From NCBI GenBank assembly GCA_029856125.1, contig JAHQWJ010000080.1, positions 1 through 64,000 on the forward strand: 64,000 bases of DNA, written 5' to 3'. Positions 31,949 to 39,656 of this stretch are shown one piece after another (position 1 is the first letter of the stretch; the number at the start of each line of letters is the position of its first letter). A model generated the notes under the pieces. It did not search any database and was not told where the DNA came from. It worked only from the letters and a program-made list of their open reading frames with translations. Source of the DNA: Promethearchaeia archaeon. Its GTDB lineage: Archaea; Asgardarchaeota; Lokiarchaeia; Sigyniarchaeales; SOKP01. The position numbers and the translations under genes are program-made.

Positions 31949-32824
31949 TTAAATTGTATCTTCTCCAACTCCTAATTGTGATATCATCATTCTCTTGAGC
32001 TCCTCTTTGTTTTTAGGTAATCCAAACATATCCGCATATTTATCAGTTGTATTTAATTCTGCTGACCTTCCTTTTTTTACCGCTGTTATTAGATCGTTGT
32101 CCAAGAGATATTTCACATGCTCGTAAGCGCCACTTCCTCTTAATTTAATTACGGTTGACTTTAAAATTGGCTGTTTCAGAGCAATTACAGTAAGTGTTCT
32201 TAAATAGCGCTCAGCAATAGCACCACCTTTAGCGAATTTGGAAACTGTTTCTGTAAGTTCCGGTCTTAGCTGCATTTGATATTTTTCTCCAATTTGGGCG
32301 ACAATCAATGCGCCTTCACGGTCTAAATAGTCAAAAGCAACAACATTTACAAGTTCTTCTACTTCTTTTTTTGGGATTTCTAATTTAGTTGATAATTCTT
32401 CTACATCCAGAGGTCTACCAGCCGCATAAAGAGCGCCCTCTATTAGATTTCTCCGTAGAACATTTAATTGTAATTCTAATTCTTCTTTCGTGAGTTCTTT
32501 AGGTATATGAAATTCAACTGTATCATCTCCTATAACTTCAGTCTCTCGTTCGCTTAAGTTTTCTTCTGAGGGGTCGAGACTCGATGATTCTTCCCCCTCA
32601 ATATTTAATTCTTCTTCAATAAACTCTTGGAGATCTTCTTCTTCTTTAAAATCTTGTTTAGGAAAATCTTCTATGGTTTCTTTGGTTTCTAATTCGATCT
32701 CAATATCTTCTAAATTCCTTTCTTCTTGAGGAATTTCTTCGGGATTAGTCTCATCTAAAGGTTCTACTTCATTCGTTTCGGCTTCGTATTGATTTTCGTG
32801 TTCTTTTTCGTTATTTTCGTTCAG
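31949..32824 (-). CDS. scpB: SMC-Scp complex kite subunit ScpB with about 120-aa acidic N-terminal extension
   Basis: Frame open from CTG 32824 (7 nt after GGTG; in-frame TAG two codons upstream). Contains IEGALYAAGRPL and TLTVIALKQPI..RGS...HVKYL...TT..Y...FGL. The ORF track shows only the last 119 aa. Confidence 0.9.
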   Translation of the reverse strand: MNENNEKEHENQYEAETNEVEPLDETNPEEIPQEERNLEDIEIELETKETIEDFPKQDFKEEEDLQEFIEEELNIEGEESSSLDPSEENLSERETEVIGDDTVEFHIPKELTKEELELQLNVLRRNLIEGALYAAGRPLDVEELSTKLEIPKKEVEELVNVVAFDYLDREGALIVAQIGEKYQMQLRPELTETVSKFAKGGAIAERYLRTLTVIALKQPILKSTVIKLRGSGAYEHVKYLLDNDLITAVKKGRSAELNTTDKYADMFGLPKNKEELKRMMISQLGVGEDTI

Positions 32825-32853
32825 TTTCTATCACCAAAAATTAGGATTGTAAT

Positions 32854-33858
32854 TTAACTTTTTAAATTTATTGAGAAATCTTTAAAATCTTCGTCTTGAA
32901 ATAGTTCTAACTTATTCCCTGTTGAGAGGAACATTAAAGCTAAAAACATGCGAACAAAAGCGAACTTCTTACCTATGTCGCTTTTTTCTTCGATATTAAT
33001 AATTTCTGCCATGTCATAAAAGGAGGTTTCTTTATCGTCAAGTTTTATTTTAGTTTTTATTCTGTTAAACCAAGCGTTGTGTAACTCTTCTACAGTTTGT
33101 TCCTTCCCGCTAATGTGTTTTAAAAGTTCTTTTGGCAGTTGCGCTTTAGATTTTTTTTGAATTCGCTGTTCTTTTAATTCATCCCGTCTCATTCTTCTCC
33201 TTTTTAGTTTTTCTTTTTTTTGCATTGTCTCAATTATTGCAGATCTCATAGCGTCAAATAATTCGTCTTTAGTGGAGATTAACATTTTAGGCTGAATAGG
33301 TTGTGGTAAAGATTTGGGTATCGATCTACCGTGCCTTGCCCTGAATTGCGCCAATTCTTCCTTTTTCTGAATCTGTTCTTCATCCCGTATTATGCTAGAG
33401 ATTTTGTAGTGATGTAATACTGCCGAAGTTTTAAGCGCGATTCCAGCAATTTTATAATTAATTAAATCTTCATGAAGCATATTATTGAAGAATTTATCAA
33501 CTAATGAAGCTAGATCGTAAAAGGCTACATTTGATTCCTTCGCGACTTCGGGATCTAAAAGGCTTGAAAAAGGCGGTTTCTGCCAGAACTTTAATTCTAA
33601 CTTTTCTTTATGCAATAATGCGGGATCTTCTTCCTCGCCGGCGACTAACTCTTCTTCCAATACTTCTTCATCCATATCATCTTGAGTTCGGTCTACAAAT
33701 TCTGGATGTGAAGCGATCTTTTCTATAAGTTTAATAATTTCATTTTTTTTTGATTTAGACGGTATCTTTATGTTGTTTTTACTTGCAAATTCCCTAAGTT
33801 GCTTTACAGACCATTCTTTGAAGTTGTATTTTTTCTCTTCACTCTCATTTTCTGGAAC
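32854..33858 (-). CDS. scpA: Kleisin ScpA with N-terminal SAP/LEM/HeH-like extension
   Basis: N-kleisin DLASLVDKF...IAGIALKTSAVLHHYK and C-terminal WH FLALMFL...LELFQDEDF; between smc and scpB. Frame open 61 codons upstream of ATG 33675 to GTT 33858 (7 nt after GGTG); exact start uncertain (ATC 33861 or ATA 33864 possible). Confidence 0.85.
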   Translation of the reverse strand, partial: VPENESEEKKYNFKEWSVKQLREFASKNNIKIPSKSKKNEIIKLIEKIASHPEFVDRTQDDMDEEVLEEELVAGEEEDPALLHKEKLELKFWQKPPFSSLLDPEVAKESNVAFYDLASLVDKFFNNMLHEDLINYKIAGIALKTSAVLHHYKISSIIRDEEQIQKKEELAQFRARHGRSIPKSLPQPIQPKMLISTKDELFDAMRSAIIETMQKKEKLKRRRMRRDELKEQRIQKKSKAQLPKELLKHISGKEQTVEELHNAWFNRIKTKIKLDDKETSFYDMAEIINIEEKSDIGKKFAFVRMFLALMFLSTGNKLELFQDEDFKDFSINLKS

Positions 33859-33884: not shown

Positions 33885-36800
33885 TTAATTTTCTTCAATA
33901 GTAGGAGGCACATCTGGAAGTTCGAGTAACCTTTTCGCTTCTTCTTCTAAATCGACACTAAAAATGTCGGTGATTCCGCTTTGTTGCATGGAAACACCGT
34001 ATATGCGATCTGCGTTAACTATATTCTCTTCACGATGACTTATCACCAAAAATTGCGCTTGTCTGGCAAATTCTTTAATTACCATACTTACTCTATGAAC
34101 ATTGGGACCATCTAAGGCAGCATCTATCTCGTCCATAATATAAAATGGCGCAGGATAAAATTCTTGAACCGCAAAAATAAATGACAAAGCAACGAGTGTT
34201 TTTTCTCCGCCACTCAATATTTCTAAACTGGAAATACGCTTCCCACGGGGTCTAGCTTCGATACTACATCCTCCTTCAAAAGGTTTATCTGGTCTATCGA
34301 GAATCATTTTTGCAGATCCCCCTGGTGAAAGCTTCTGAAATATTCGAGCAAACTCACGATTGATTTCGTGGTAAGCCTTCATGAATGTTCGAGTTTTTTC
34401 CAATTCAATTTTTTCAATAGCATCGAGAATTGCTTTTCTTTCACGTTGTATCGTTTGCCTTCTCATATCTATTTCGTCAAATCTCTCTTTTATAGTATCA
34501 TATTGCGTAATAGCTTTCAAGTTAACTGGTTCCAAAGCTTTTTTCTTGTTGGTAGCTGTAGAAATATCTGATTGTAATCCCGATTCTGAGAGCTCGTCAG
34601 TCACTACGGGCAAAGCACCGTAATCCTTCGATCTCTGATAAAAAGTTTCTATCTGATCTGTAGTAATAATCTTTTTTGATTCAAAATTGTTTAGTTTAGC
34701 ATTTTCCATTGAAAGATCAGAGCGTAGGTCGTTTATTAGTTTCTGATAATTTTTTTGTTTCTGCCAGGATATATCCTTTCCTTGAATCTGTTTATTAATT
34801 TCTTCCTGTTTTACATTCTTTTTGTCTTCTTCTTGTTTTAAATCAGTTTCAATGTTTTCAATATCTTTTACTATTAATTCTATTTGTTTCTCAGTTTCTT
34901 TGATGTCTTGGTTAAGAGAGATTATTTTTTGTTCTCGTTCTTTATTTTTATTTAATTCGTTTAATTTAGCTTGTATTTTTTGAAGATCTTTATTAAATTT
35001 ATTTAATTCTTTTTGAACTTTCTTTTGCGCTTCCAACTCTTTGTTTTTATCTTCTCTTAAAGCATCTATGACTAATTGGATTTCATTGACTTTCTTTTGT
35101 ACCTCATCTACTTGGGTATTAAAACCCTCCATGTCTTGAGCACACTGTTTAATATTTGCGTTAGCTTCCAAGTTTTCCTTAGTTAATTCTTCAATTGAAT
35201 TGATAACCATCATAACATTTTCAAGTGCCCTTAGGTTATCCATTGTACTCTCTAATTTTTTATTTTGGTTACCAATATGAGTTCTTAACTTTTCTGTATT
35301 CTCCCAAAACTTATTTTTTTCTAAAATTTGAGAATCGATTTTTACTGTTAAAGCTTCTTGTTCTAAATTGAGATTTGTAATGTTTTCTTCAGTGTTAATT
35401 ATAATATTTTTCTTATTTTCTATATTTGAATTTAATTCTTGGATATTATTCTCAATATCAATGATTTTTTCATAAAAATTTTGTATTCCCTGCAATTCTT
35501 GAAGTTTTTTATGCAAATCGTCTAATCCTTGCTGTTTTATTTCTATATTTTTCTTGATAGTAGAAACTTTATCCCAGTAGTCCTCTTTGAGTTGTTTTAC
35601 ATTGTTTATTTCTTCATTGAAATTTTCTTTTTGTTTTTCTCCTATAACAGTATTCCTCTGCTTAACCTCAGCTTCAGACTTTTCGATTTTCCCGACCAAT
35701 TCGGTGATTCTTTTATTAACTTCTTCTAATCTCTTATTAGTAACTGATAAATCGTCTGAATCATGCTTTTCTTGAGTATTTATCCGTGTTAAATCTTTTT
35801 CAATTTGGTTTAGATCCAGAGTTTGAGACGCAATATTTTCAGTGATCTCTTCAAGCTGTTTATATTGCTCTTGTGATTTTGACATAGTGAGTTTTCGCAA
35901 TGATAAGTATACATTCTCAAGAATTTCCATTAAATCTTGAACGAAGCTATCAAAAGTTGATGTAGATTGTTGAATTTCTACGTCAGCACTTTCCTTTACA
36001 GAATCAATTAACTGATCTATCGTTGTGTCAACATTCTCAGTAAAAAGAGTTAATGTCTGAAGTATAGACTTAAGAGTTTCAGACATTTCAGCAACCTCTG
36101 ATTTTTGTTCCGCTTCTGCTTCAGCTTCAGAGCTTACATCTTCAACCGTCTTCATAATATCGATAATATCAAGGACAAATTGTTTAAAGTTAACCCCTGA
36201 CGTCTCAATTGCCTCAGCATTAGACTGTTGAATGTTGCTCTTGATAGATTCGACGGAAATATTGATATTCTGAGTGAGCATGTTCAGTATTTGCAGGATT
36301 CCTGTTATATCTTCAGTATTTCTTTCGTATTCTTTTTCTGTATTTTCAATTTTAGCTAATAAATTATTTTTTTCAGTAGTTAGCTCTCCTATTCGTCTTT
36401 GAATATTATCTTTTCTTTTATTAAGCCCTTCTGATTCAGAGCTATTTTTAGTTAAATTTGCGTTTAGAGTTGACGATTTTAATTCTAAATCTTGTTTTTC
36501 CCTCTCAAGATTGGTCGATTCTTTTTTTAATAGATTTAACCTCGTATTAATATTATCAATTTTGGTTCTGTTATCATTAATTTCTGATTCAATAGAATCT
36601 TGTTTCATTAACAATAATTCTAATTCTTGTTCATTTTTTCTATAAATAGAATCTTCATCTTTTAATTGTTGTCGATAACTGTTTAATTCATTAGTTAGAG
36701 TATCTTTTTCCCTTAATAGCTCTTTTAACGCCTCTTCTGTGTCTTTCCCTTTACTTAATTCTTTGATTTTTTCTTCAGTTTTGATTTTATCTACATTCAA

Positions 36801-38354
36801 CTTTTCTATCCTATCGGAGTTCATCTTAATCTCTGTAGTTAGTGACGATAACATAGATTTGAAATCTGCAGACTTTGAATTAAGATTGTTCTTATCTTCT
36901 TGTAGGGTTACGATAATTTTCTCTAGATCTTGTTGATTTTCGTTCTCTTTTGAGATTTTTATATTTAAGTCATTAATTTCTTTTCTTGTTGCTTCAGCCT
37001 CACTCTTTGTATTAGCTATTGCATCTTCAATGCTTTCTGATTCTCCTTTTAATTTGCTAAGATCCAGTTCTAATTTCTGTTTTTTTTCTTCGTTTTTTTT
37101 AATATTCTTTTTCAGAATTTTAATTTGAGCTTTATTCGATGAAATACTTTGCTTTATAACGGAGATTTCTCCATTAAATCCTGTTTTTCCATCGTTTTGT
37201 TCTTTAATTTTTGCGTCAATGTCAGCTTGTTTTTGGTGTTTACTTTCTATTTCTGCTTTTGATGCTTCAATTTGACTTTCTGTATCTGCTACAACTTTCA
37301 TTTCTGATTCAATTAAAGAATCAAATGTTTGGCCTTCATCAAGAACCATCTGCAATTTTTCCAAAGTATTAATTTCTTGAGAAATTTTTTCAATTGACTT
37401 ATTTGCGAGGGTTAAAGACGTTTTATTTGAAGATTGTTGCGTTTTAAGTTGAGTGATTTTTTCAGTGATGATTTCTCTTTCTTTTTCTTTTTCAGTTATG
37501 TTTTTTTGTATATTTTCCATAACTAATGATTCTTGTTTTAAAATATCATCTTGTCTTGTTAATTTTTCTTTTAATTCTTCTAAGATTGTATTAGATTCTT
37601 CAATACTTTTTTCTAGATCATTTTCTTCCTTCCTTAATTTCTCTATCTTTAATGCTATCAATTGAGCGTTGTATAAGTCGATTTGTTCATCTAACTCTTT
37701 CCATGCCAAAGCATCATTCTTTTCTTTTTCTACTTTTTTTAATTGAGAGGAAACTTCTTTGAAAATTGCTTCAAATTGGCCTAGATCTCTTTCAGCCTTT
37801 TCTAGTTCCTTCATAGTTCCATCCTTCATTTCATCGTATTTCTGTAGGCCAATAAGATCTTCTATAAATATTCTGCGTGCTACCGGATTCATGTGAGTTA
37901 ATTCTACGATTTTCCCTTGTAGAACGAATTGATTACTTCCATCAGGATCTACATTTGCAGCTGCAAGAGCATTAAGAATCTGAGTTCTAGTAGATTTTTT
38001 GCCGTTCATTTTATATCCTCCGCCCCCTCCTCGTTGAATTGTTCGAGTAACTTCGAATGTTTCTGTTCCACCTGGGAAAATTTCCTCTGAGTTATCGAAA
38101 TATAATGTGACCGAAGCTCTGTTTGAAGGGTTTTTACCTCGGGATCCCGCAAAAATCAAATCTTCAAGACTCTTAGCTCTCATAGTTTTTTTGCTCAGTC
38201 TACCTAAAGCAAATGTTAAAGCGTCAATAATGTTAGATTTTCCTGCGCCGTTAGGGCCTACTATACAAGTAAATCCGCTCGAAAGCCTAAGAGTAACAGT
38301 TCTGTCACCGAATGATTTAAATCCGGTCATAGAAATTTTTTTGATGTAGGTCAA
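33885..38354 (-). CDS. smc: SMC protein (1489 aa) lacking a canonical hinge domain
   Basis: GFKSF, GPNGAGKSNIIDA, Q-loop VLQGKI, PVNLKAI, LSGGEK, PAPFYIMDEIDAALD, ISH. Confidence 0.95.
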   Translation of the reverse strand: MTYIKKISMTGFKSFGDRTVTLRLSSGFTCIVGPNGAGKSNIIDALTFALGRLSKKTMRAKSLEDLIFAGSRGKNPSNRASVTLYFDNSEEIFPGGTETFEVTRTIQRGGGGGYKMNGKKSTRTQILNALAAANVDPDGSNQFVLQGKIVELTHMNPVARRIFIEDLIGLQKYDEMKDGTMKELEKAERDLGQFEAIFKEVSSQLKKVEKEKNDALAWKELDEQIDLYNAQLIALKIEKLRKEENDLEKSIEESNTILEELKEKLTRQDDILKQESLVMENIQKNITEKEKEREIITEKITQLKTQQSSNKTSLTLANKSIEKISQEINTLEKLQMVLDEGQTFDSLIESEMKVVADTESQIEASKAEIESKHQKQADIDAKIKEQNDGKTGFNGEISVIKQSISSNKAQIKILKKNIKKNEEKKQKLELDLSKLKGESESIEDAIANTKSEAEATRKEINDLNIKISKENENQQDLEKIIVTLQEDKNNLNSKSADFKSMLSSLTTEIKMNSDRIEKLNVDKIKTEEKIKELSKGKDTEEALKELLREKDTLTNELNSYRQQLKDEDSIYRKNEQELELLLMKQDSIESEINDNRTKIDNINTRLNLLKKESTNLEREKQDLELKSSTLNANLTKNSSESEGLNKRKDNIQRRIGELTTEKNNLLAKIENTEKEYERNTEDITGILQILNMLTQNINISVESIKSNIQQSNAEAIETSGVNFKQFVLDIIDIMKTVEDVSSEAEAEAEQKSEVAEMSETLKSILQTLTLFTENVDTTIDQLIDSVKESADVEIQQSTSTFDSFVQDLMEILENVYLSLRKLTMSKSQEQYKQLEEITENIASQTLDLNQIEKDLTRINTQEKHDSDDLSVTNKRLEEVNKRITELVGKIEKSEAEVKQRNTVIGEKQKENFNEEINNVKQLKEDYWDKVSTIKKNIEIKQQGLDDLHKKLQELQGIQNFYEKIIDIENNIQELNSNIENKKNIIINTEENITNLNLEQEALTVKIDSQILEKNKFWENTEKLRTHIGNQNKKLESTMDNLRALENVMMVINSIEELTKENLEANANIKQCAQDMEGFNTQVDEVQKKVNEIQLVIDALREDKNKELEAQKKVQKELNKFNKDLQKIQAKLNELNKNKEREQKIISLNQDIKETEKQIELIVKDIENIETDLKQEEDKKNVKQEEINKQIQGKDISWQKQKNYQKLINDLRSDLSMENAKLNNFESKKIITTDQIETFYQRSKDYGALPVVTDELSESGLQSDISTATNKKKALEPVNLKAITQYDTIKERFDEIDMRRQTIQRERKAILDAIEKIELEKTRTFMKAYHEINREFARIFQKLSPGGSAKMILDRPDKPFEGGCSIEARPRGKRISSLEILSGGEKTLVALSFIFAVQEFYPAPFYIMDEIDAALDGPNVHRVSMVIKEFARQAQFLVISHREENIVNADRIYGVSMQQSGITDIFSVDLEEEAKRLLELPDVPPTIEEN

Positions 38355-38471: not shown

Positions 38472-39656
38472 TTAGTGTTTGGTGAAAATAGCATCCATGA
38501 TAGGCTTTAGTTGCTTTGGGTTTATAACCATAAAGTAGTAATCGTAATTCAAGACATTGTCGTTAAAGTATCGAAAATTATTTATATCATTTTTTTTTGA
38601 AGCGTTTAATATCCCGATATTGCGTAAATTAACGATTAAATGCTTAAATTCCTCTATATCCTTTGTATAATCTAATGATTCACATGTTACATGATACAAT
38701 TCTCTTAATTCCCCGATAGTTATATAAAGATTTGCTTTTTTTAGAAAATAATTAGATAAATTATCCAGAAAAATCAGGTTTAACAGATCTGATTCTGAGA
38801 TATAGCTTATCATACTAAATTCATCTGTAATTTGAAGCGTGTCAAATTGGCTTTGAAGAATATCATAAATCTCGAACTTTTTTAAAGTCATTTTTTGATT
38901 TAAAACAGGATAAAGCTCTCTCAAAATTTCAATACCTTTTCCTGGAACAGGTACGTGGTGCTCGAAAATTAAATCAGTAATTAAATCTATTAACTCTTTA
39001 TCGATTTCATTGAAGAACGCCAAAGAAATTCTTTGCTTTATAATATCGTTAAGCTCGGAGAATGAAAAGTAGTCTAATTTCTTTTTAAAGTCAAATTCGC
39101 TCAAAATCTCCAGGATTGACGATCTTAATACTTGATTACCAGTAGATATTACGTTAATTTTGTTTTCTTTGCCGTATTTTAAAAATTTTCTAAAAGTCTC
39201 TGGTTGTATGTGTTCAATATTATTAAACACTAGAGTTATATTATGATCTACTTTTCTACATACAAGCTTAAACAAGTTCCATAAATCCAAGATAGAAGAA
39301 TTTAGAAACGAATTATAATCAAAATTGATGTTCTTTTTCCTTCCAACTTCAGCTATTAACGAAACTAATATCTCTTCCACAGTTTTTTCAGCGCAATCAA
39401 TTTGGATTTTTATAAGTTCAGTATTTAAAGTAGAAATATCGTTCAAGACCTTGTTTACAATAACTTTTTTCCCAATTCCTTGTAAACCAGAAAATAATAT
39501 ATTTAGTTGAAATTCATCTAGTATTGAATCTTTAAGAATTGAATAAAGCGATTTTTCTTCTGATTTTCGATGTAATATTTTAGGGGGGATATATGATTGA
39601 TCAAATAACGCTCTTGGACCAACGAATTCACTATTTATCCTTTGTGGAGAAATCAT
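38472..39656 (-). CDS. Orc1/Cdc6-like protein with degenerate ATPase motifs
   Basis: LFDQSYIPPKILHR N-terminal motif, GLQGIGKK (Walker A), LVFNNIE (Walker B), YFSFSELNDIIKQR, C-terminal winged helix. Confidence 0.8.
   Translation of the reverse strand: MISPQRINSEFVGPRALFDQSYIPPKILHRKSEEKSLYSILKDSILDEFQLNILFSGLQGIGKKVIVNKVLNDISTLNTELIKIQIDCAEKTVEEILVSLIAEVGRKKNINFDYNSFLNSSILDLWNLFKLVCRKVDHNITLVFNNIEHIQPETFRKFLKYGKENKINVISTGNQVLRSSILEILSEFDFKKKLDYFSFSELNDIIKQRISLAFFNEIDKELIDLITDLIFEHHVPVPGKGIEILRELYPVLNQKMTLKKFEIYDILQSQFDTLQITDEFSMISYISESDLLNLIFLDNLSNYFLKKANLYITIGELRELYHVTCESLDYTKDIEEFKHLIVNLRNIGILNASKKNDINNFRYFNDNVLNYDYYFMVINPKQLKPIMDAIFTKH

Follow-up and report, generated by a model that had tools for sequence, protein, structure and literature searches.

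The stretch of DNA analyzed here, referred to below as the window, comprises positions 1-64,000 of contig JAHQWJ010000080.1 (64,000 nucleotides; GenBank assembly GCA_029856125.1) from a Promethearchaeia archaeon (Lokiarchaeia; Sigyniarchaeales; SOKP01). We examined one of its genes, which encodes an unusually long SMC (structural maintenance of chromosomes) protein lacking a hinge, and in particular the sequence repeats in the arms of that protein:

33885-38354, minus strand: long hinge-less SMC gene, open reading frame of 1489 amino acids (aa), TTG start

The original prediction held that the arms of this SMC consist of tandem segments of about 90 and 98 aa and had grown by duplication of such units. 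Arm growth by unit duplication is supported by the analysis below, through both the ~90/98-aa repeats and a difference of one unit per strand between two natural length classes. The modules of the arm probably arose by tandem duplication of paired units, which is the best overall explanation of the data.

The identity of the protein was established from its head, which is formed by both termini. Pfam SMC_N gave a split match across aa 3-1462 of the 1489-aa SMC (147 bits), and the translation contained the Walker A (GPNGAGKS), signature (LSGGEK) and Walker B (FYIMDEIDAALD) motifs. The best solved match of the head was the Pyrococcus Smc head 5xei (expect value [E] 4.6e-118); the closest solved heads were those of Pyrococcus and Bacillus Smc, far better than those of Smc5/6 or Rad50. 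The NCBIfam models SMC_prok_A and SMC_prok_B scored 590.6 bits (cut-off 729.4) and 567.6 bits (cut-off 567.35), respectively, and Rad50 models scored far under their cut-offs. A Rad50/SbcC identity was rejected, as aa 660-860 of the tip contain no Cys and thus no CxxC zinc hook. The SMC hinge model PF06470 found no match in the long SMC even at E≤1, none in the whole window genome (99% complete), and none among approximately 130 homologue clusters of the long SMC. The gene product is a condensin-type SMC ATPase without a hinge, and it is the only condensin-type SMC found in the window genome. The original prediction was silent on the missing hinge and on the status of the protein as a paralogue, that is, a non-standard SMC.

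The motifs on which the repeats had been proposed were all found in the translation. In the C-arm, KEDYW (aa 923-927), KNKFW (1013-1017), KNKEL (1103-1107) and KDISW (1193-1197) recur 90 aa apart, with Leu at +24 in four of four units and KII at +36 in two. In the N-arm, the Gly motifs DEGQTF (339-344), KGESESI (436-442) and KGKDT (535-539) are each preceded by SS 36-37 aa upstream. The single positions given in the original prediction (927, 1017, 1107 and 1197 in the C-arm, and those of the N-arm) denote the last residue of each motif. The eight units delimited around these motifs are listed below by their aa positions, window coordinates and evidence.

aa 242-338, 37341-37631, minus strand: N1; hhalign and unit stack; best match mid-class n1
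aa 339-436, 37047-37340, minus strand: N2, opening with loop DEGQTF; hhalign and unit stack; break in the AlphaFold2 (AF2) model at 335-343
aa 437-534, 36753-37046, minus strand: N3, opening with loop GESES; hhalign and unit stack; AF2 break at 437-441
aa 535-632, 36459-36752, minus strand: N4, opening with loop KGKDT; hhalign and unit stack; AF2 break at 534-539
aa 876-965, 35460-35729, minus strand: C1 (W927); lag 90, hhalign and unit stack
aa 966-1055, 35190-35459, minus strand: C2 (W1017); hhalign and unit stack; AF2 kink at aa 956
aa 1056-1145, 34920-35189, minus strand: C3 (L1107); hhalign and unit stack; AF2 kink at aa 1046
aa 1146-1235, 34650-34919, minus strand: C4 (W1197); hhalign and unit stack; phase shift at aa ~1135-1150

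In a BLOSUM lag scan of the single sequence, lag 90 ranked top in the C-arm (z 3.6) and lag 180 ranked second. A family profile was then built from an alignment of 123 homologues, which held only 11 insert columns in 1500, arm lengths being nearly invariant within the long family. With this profile, the C-arm gave z 5.1-5.7 at lag 90 and z 3.2-3.4 at lag 180, and the N-arm peaked at lag 195 (z 4.2-4.4). The signal was compared with sequences in which 7-residue blocks had been permuted, so that heptads and composition were kept. The C-arm value observed at lag 90 was reached by 0 of 400 such shuffles (z 10). When the N-arm was scanned with a ±1 band, which absorbs an alternation of 97 and 98, lags 98 and 97 came out top and were reached in 0 of 150 shuffles (z 11).

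Supportively, self-alignment of the profiles by hhalign placed aa 964-1222 of the C-arm on aa 876-1132 (257 columns, shift 88-90, E 1e-14) and aa 339-660 of the N-arm on aa 242-562 (320 columns, shift 97-98, E 1.5e-14). These off-diagonal alignments were long and almost ungapped, second-order alignments occurred at shifts 180 and 195, and all other shifts of the arm profiles gave E 0.004-0.16. Self-comparison of the single sequence was marginal (E 4e-4 and 0.015), so the family profile was needed. The 90-aa period thus delimited extends over aa ~876-1235 of the C-strand, and the 97-98-aa period over aa ~242-660 of the N-strand, where the signal fades by aa ~660, after N4. Profile lags, hhalign and block shuffles alike placed the off-diagonal similarity well above the heptad background, against which the original prediction had asked it to be judged.

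As a control, canonical Asgard SMC arms of similar profile diversity were scanned in the same way. They showed lags 7, 14 and 21 only, with no dominant long period, and their best hhalign self-alignment had E 3e-5. A faint shift of ~90 aa in the canonical N-arm (E 4.5e-5) received no support from the lag scan. Homology between N-arm and C-arm units received no support either: the best value, E 1.3e-6, equals the background, since the long N-arm against the canonical C-arm gave the same value. With a cross-arm background of about E 1e-6, the similarity of N units to C units is therefore no evidence of a common origin. Alignment of the long to the canonical SMC profile produced many scattered gaps, in which insertions could not be located.

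The distribution of lengths among homologues was then examined. We refer to proteins of 1464-1489 aa as the long class and to a sister class of 1290-1304 aa as the mid class. A search of 1.84 billion cluster representatives with the central segment returned only 34 clusters, of which the full-length members measured 1464-1487 aa, plus one of 1296 aa labelled Sigynarchaeota. The hinge-less clade as a whole comprised approximately 120 clusters of 1464-1489 aa and nine of 1290-1304 aa. No complete protein between ~1305 and 1463 aa was found in this clade, and no member longer or shorter by further steps was found in the length ranges searched. The lengths are thus discrete, falling into two classes with no complete protein between them, rather than continuous. 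In a tree of the head domains, the long and mid classes formed sister clades within one clade (SH-aLRT [Shimodaira-Hasegawa-like approximate likelihood ratio test] 100), beside canonical archaeal SMC.

Profile-profile alignment of the long and mid classes yielded a single alignment with three gaps of at least 3 aa, namely one of 97 aa in the N-arm, one of 12 aa in the acidic linker of the tip and one of 88 aa in the C-arm; the same comparison was also run as a single-sequence long/mid profile alignment. MAFFT, an independent method, reproduced the same two clean gaps in the arms, with an N-arm gap of 97 columns. The blocks of the long protein that are missing from the mid class are as follows.

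aa 491-587, 36594-36884, minus strand: N-arm block missing from the mid class, 97 aa, by profile-profile alignment and MAFFT; gap placement within a tandem repeat is ambiguous
aa 880-967, 35454-35717, minus strand: C-arm block missing from the mid class, 88 aa, by profile-profile alignment and MAFFT

A length step of ~188 aa had been predicted, and the 97-aa and 88-aa blocks that separate the classes bear this out. Consistently, the first and last conserved Trp anchors of the C-arm are separated by 270 aa in long proteins and by 180 aa in mid-class proteins. The mid class showed the same internal periods, of ~97 aa in the N-arm (E 3e-7) and 87-90 aa in the C-arm (E 5e-9), and N-arm lengths were ~335 aa in canonical, ~420 aa in mid and ~520 aa in long proteins.

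Next, an AF2 model of the arm (aa 150-1340; predicted local distance difference test [pLDDT] 75) was compared with the repeat units. The predicted molecule was all-helical with one apex, and its uninterrupted helices of 92-209 residues contained no intra-unit turns. The N-strand helix was broken over 5-9 residues at aa 335-343, 437-441 and 534-539, which are the Gly motifs; the C-strand showed single-residue kinks only, at aa 910-912, 956 and 1046. The regular loop that had been expected on one strand thus appears in the model, on the N-strand only. A further joint-like break lay near the head at aa 1246-1256.

Fourier analysis of hydrophobic periodicity, which was made on the sequence, detected a heptad phase shift of ~+100 degrees in the C-strand at aa ~955-975, ~1045-1065 and ~1135-1150, that is, every 90 aa. 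Heptad phase was continuous within units. In the N-strand, phase shifts occurred at aa ~340 (~+95 degrees) and ~540 (aa 536-545) and none at ~439, so the strand has a super-period of 195 aa. Counted in helical residues from the apex of the model, N4 spans 119-216 and C1 125-214; N3, 211-303 and C2, 215-304; N2, 304-396 and C3, 305-394; and N1, 393-489 and C4, 395-484. Unit boundaries would therefore coincide across the strands in the pairs N4/C1, N3/C2, N2/C3 and N1/C4.

From these data, the following architecture is proposed. The SMC would fold back on itself at aa ~750 into a single long hairpin of antiparallel helices, and four quasi-equivalent paired modules would follow one another along its arm. 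Each of them would contribute ~90 helical residues on the C-strand and, on the N-strand, ~92 helical residues plus a loop of 5-9 residues (97-98 aa). The end of each module would be marked by discontinuities in both strands, namely a loop in the N-strand and a heptad phase shift of one-residue type in the C-strand. One module would correspond to about one superhelical turn, and the breaks of the N-strand may act as joints. The long (1480-aa) and mid (1297-aa) classes differ by exactly one module per strand, or ~13 nm of coiled coil, so that arm length would change only in whole modules.

Unit-by-unit profile scores bear on how the modules arose. Within the long protein the closest pairs were C1/C2 (58-65) and N2/N3 (57-59). 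Mid-class c1 matched C2 best (95) and C1 next (46), and mid-class n2 was matched equally by N2 and N3 (66-71). C2 is the orthologue of mid-class c1 and C4 that of mid-class c3, and N1 best matches mid-class n1. These relationships fit one duplication per strand separating the classes.

Several observations weigh against tandem duplication of paired units, or limit what can be said of its course. Identity between the repeat units is low (14-27%); together with the finding of no DNA-level tandem repeats of 270 or 291-294 nucleotides in the SMC gene, this means that the repeats are old. A broad canonical profile (Neff 6) gave hhalign E 1e-12 at arbitrary shifts, which makes hhalign E-values unreliable in coiled coils; they were dropped as sole evidence, and the repeats are therefore argued from the lag statistics, the shuffles and the pattern of indels. 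The pairing of N and C units is counted around an apex of low confidence in the model (pLDDT 50-72). Moreover, the two closest pairs, N2/N3 and C1/C2, are not opposite one another in this pairing: N3 faces C2, but N2 faces C3. Two separate events plus heterologous pairing must therefore be assumed, meaning that duplicated N units must be able to pair with duplicated C units other than their own partners. Finally, C2 is closer to c1 (95) than to C1 (58-65), and the long and mid classes are reciprocally monophyletic in a tree without polarity. Because of these two points, gain and loss are indistinguishable, and a module may as well have been lost by the mid class as gained by the long class.

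Convergence might produce a periodicity without any duplication, if superhelical pitch, rod-rod packing or periodic contacts with ScpA, ScpB or DNA impose residues at intervals. This account is unlikely. It would accommodate the low identity between units, and it has precedents in the long-range patterns without clear duplication that have been discussed for tropomyosin and myosin rods (PMC5344682); the N-arm/C-arm similarity at cross-arm background also shows how far generic coiled-coil similarity can reach. It does not account, however, for clean gaps of exactly one unit per strand between the classes, which are the footprint of unit gain or loss, nor for C1/C2 and N2/N3 being much closer than other pairs and mapping to single mid-class units; moreover, canonical SMC arms lack such a lag although the structural constraints on them are the same.

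Spectrin-like helical bundles arranged in series, with the N and C halves forming two independent repeat rods, would be a very improbable arrangement. The unit length of 90-98 aa is near that of a spectrin repeat, which is ~106 aa, and the N half has regular loops, but the modelled helices run on without intra-unit turns, the heptad phase holds throughout each unit, loops are missing from the C half, and the head, as in all SMCs, requires its two halves to come together. Least probable of all, and hardly to be entertained, is an artefact of coiled-coil low complexity, that is, of heptads and a K/E/N/I-rich composition: lags 7, 14 and 21 are indeed high in every SMC arm tested and a generic coiled-coil profile aligns to itself at arbitrary shifts, but 90 and 97 are not multiples of 7, no heptad-keeping block shuffle among the 400 and the 150 reached the signal, other shifts in the same profile gave E of at least 0.004, and the period recurs in the independent mid class.

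In place of the hinge, the arm ends in a conserved tip:

aa 661-840, 35835-36374, minus strand: tip, a conserved and predicted all-helical hairpin instead of a hinge, by family identity and AF2

Within the family, identity in the tip reaches 84-92% at aa 691-720 and 781-840, and the segment contains 2 Gly and 0 Pro in 181 aa. Comparison of the tip with the canonical hinge profile detected no similarity (E 0.39). In the model of aa 150-1340 the apex lay at aa 749-754, within a variable acidic linker. A separate AF2 model of aa 640-870, made from a more diverse alignment, again gave a plain hairpin, which turned at aa 748-751. The apex of the hairpin would thus lie at aa ~748-754, in the acidic, length-variable linker (aa ~743-754). 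Foldseek of the tip model against the PDB returned no row at E≤0.001; chemoreceptor hairpins (2ch7, E 0.007) and SMC arm fragments ranked best. As these rows lie above E 0.001, the tip is called a helical hairpin and no more. A two-copy complex prediction of the tip (aa 630-872) scored 0.00, which gives no verdict either way on dimerisation.

A segment resembling the tip also occurred outside the SMC. Proteins P0145, P0147, P0149 and P0154, of ~1000-1180 aa, have no ATPase head or Pfam match, and most of them carry lysine-rich tails; their N-terminal ~200 aa are similar to the tip segment of the SMC (BLAST E 1e-11 to 1e-16). The tip-like segment of these headless proteins could be a shared module or mere coiled-coil similarity.

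The genes beside smc that are expected to encode its partners were located downstream of it:

32854-33675, minus strand: kleisin ScpA-like gene directly downstream of smc, weak Pfam SMC_ScpA match (E 0.005)
31949-32827, minus strand: ScpB (kite) reading frame dedicated to the long SMC, PF04079 match (E 1.6e-33) at 31994-32446

The former is the sole ScpA-like match, and the latter the only ScpB, in the window genome. In genomes with both SMC types there are two ScpB genes, one beside each SMC, and the long SMC has a dedicated kleisin/kite gene set. The ScpB frame is open for 292 codons; its first ATG, GTG or TTG falls inside the conserved domain, so that the called open reading frame measures 119 aa, and the Pfam match begins ~46 codons upstream of that codon, after an acidic extension. 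From the reading frame, this points to a putative non-canonical start codon or to coupling to scpA. The gene directly upstream of smc (38472-39656, minus strand) had weak Cdc6_C and AAA_22 matches (E ~0.008-0.01), and its product may be a divergent Orc1/Cdc6-like protein.

Of the genomes sampled, 23 of 25 from the window's family and both of two from a second family of the same order carried the long form; with this query, it was found in none of 124 sampled genomes from the other 25 families of the phylum. In genera g4 and g6, and in g7 of the sister family, a canonical hinge-bearing SMC of 1196 aa, which matches the hinge model strongly and has a ScpB of its own, occurs beside the long form. 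The long SMC is a paralogue, since some genera carry a canonical SMC as well. Genera g1, g2, g3 and g5 show only the long form together with a weak-hinge third paralogue of ~1150-1170 aa. The window's genus shows this latter pattern, and in the window genome the third paralogue is represented by its N-terminal head only, the rest being cut off by a contig end (G000:C122:18955-19290). In a related genome, a 48-codon fragment containing a stop codon and 83% identical to the C terminus of the long SMC (G008:C63:34961-35107) lies ~13 kb from the intact gene.

Among known systems, Smc-ScpAB of Pyrococcus and Bacillus is like the present one in its Walker A, signature and Walker B motifs, its matching heads, the adjoining scpA- and scpB-like genes and, as far as the model predicts it here, a long antiparallel coiled-coil arm. 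Unlike Smc-ScpAB, the long SMC has no hinge, is ~300 aa longer and has ~555 rather than ~340 helical residues per strand; unlike canonical Asgard SMC arms, its arms carry tandem sequence repeats. Head-to-tip reach, computed from helix lengths, is ~69 nm in the mid and ~83 nm in the long class versus ~50 nm in canonical SMC. With these matched natural proteins, the influence of arm length and of periodic discontinuities on DNA loading and loop extrusion can be tested experimentally. The genes described here also make up a full additional SMC-ScpAB set, one lacking a hinge, in Asgard archaea, which are the prokaryotes most closely related to eukaryotes.

The cytoplasmic hairpin of chemoreceptors (methyl-accepting chemotaxis proteins, MCPs) is likewise long, helical and antiparallel, its tip is conserved, and the best, though weak, structural match of the tip model was to such a hairpin (2ch7, E 0.007); that match is not significant, and homology of the tip to MCPs is not implied. 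Alexander and Zhulin (2007) reportedly found that the length classes of MCPs are set apart by insertions placed symmetrically in the two strands. Unlike those of the SMC arm, MCP steps are heptad pairs rather than units of ~90 aa, and MCPs have no ATPase heads. Tropomyosin and the myosin rod resemble the arm in having quasi-repeats far longer than the heptad: skip residues of the myosin rod recur at ~196 aa, and the super-period of the N-strand here is 195 aa. Those proteins, however, form parallel coiled coils of two chains, with repeats that correspond to partners in binding or packing, and the present arm is predicted to be the intramolecular antiparallel arm of a DNA motor. The seven units of tropomyosin are discussed in PMC5344682.

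Hinge-less SMC variants have been reported only from marine Actinobacteria (PMC12153180); these are bacterial, and arm repeats or length classes were not described for them. In the literature searched, we found no description of repeat-built SMC arms or of an Asgard hinge-less clade.

The closest comparison is with the arm of Bacillus subtilis Smc. Upon resizing of that arm, function was retained only at lengths following a 91-aa period, near the superhelical period of ~99 aa (Burmann et al. 2017, Mol Cell, PMC5344682), which agrees with the functional period of ~90 residues given in the original prediction. Natural SMC arm lengths have modes at 238, 341 and 515 aa and minor modes at 163 and 423 aa, in steps of ~100 aa, a periodicity that the authors called puzzling (PMC5344682). 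The N-arms compared here, at ~335, 420 and 520 aa, fall on the modes 341, 423 and 515 aa of that study. The constraint described by Burmann et al. came from engineered constructs and length statistics on hinge-bearing SMCs, with no sequence repeats reported, and because their pipeline required a hinge match it would have missed the hinge-less clade (PMC5344682). In that clade, by comparison, the length quantum is readable as a repeated sequence module, and two natural classes lie one module per strand apart.

That SMC arms in general lengthen by whole paired modules, because any N unit can pair with any C unit, is a tentative and rather doubtful extension. If it holds, addition of paired modules would be the evolutionary mechanism behind quantised SMC arm lengths, and the Lokiarchaeial/Sigynarchaeial hinge-less clade would supply natural three- and four-module versions of one motor, allowing a direct test of arm length or joint number against the step size or reach of loop extrusion. 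The module array is a natural counterpart of the 91-aa functional period and of the ~100-aa natural length steps, and it suggests a way for arms to become longer or shorter while avoiding intermediate lengths that would not function.

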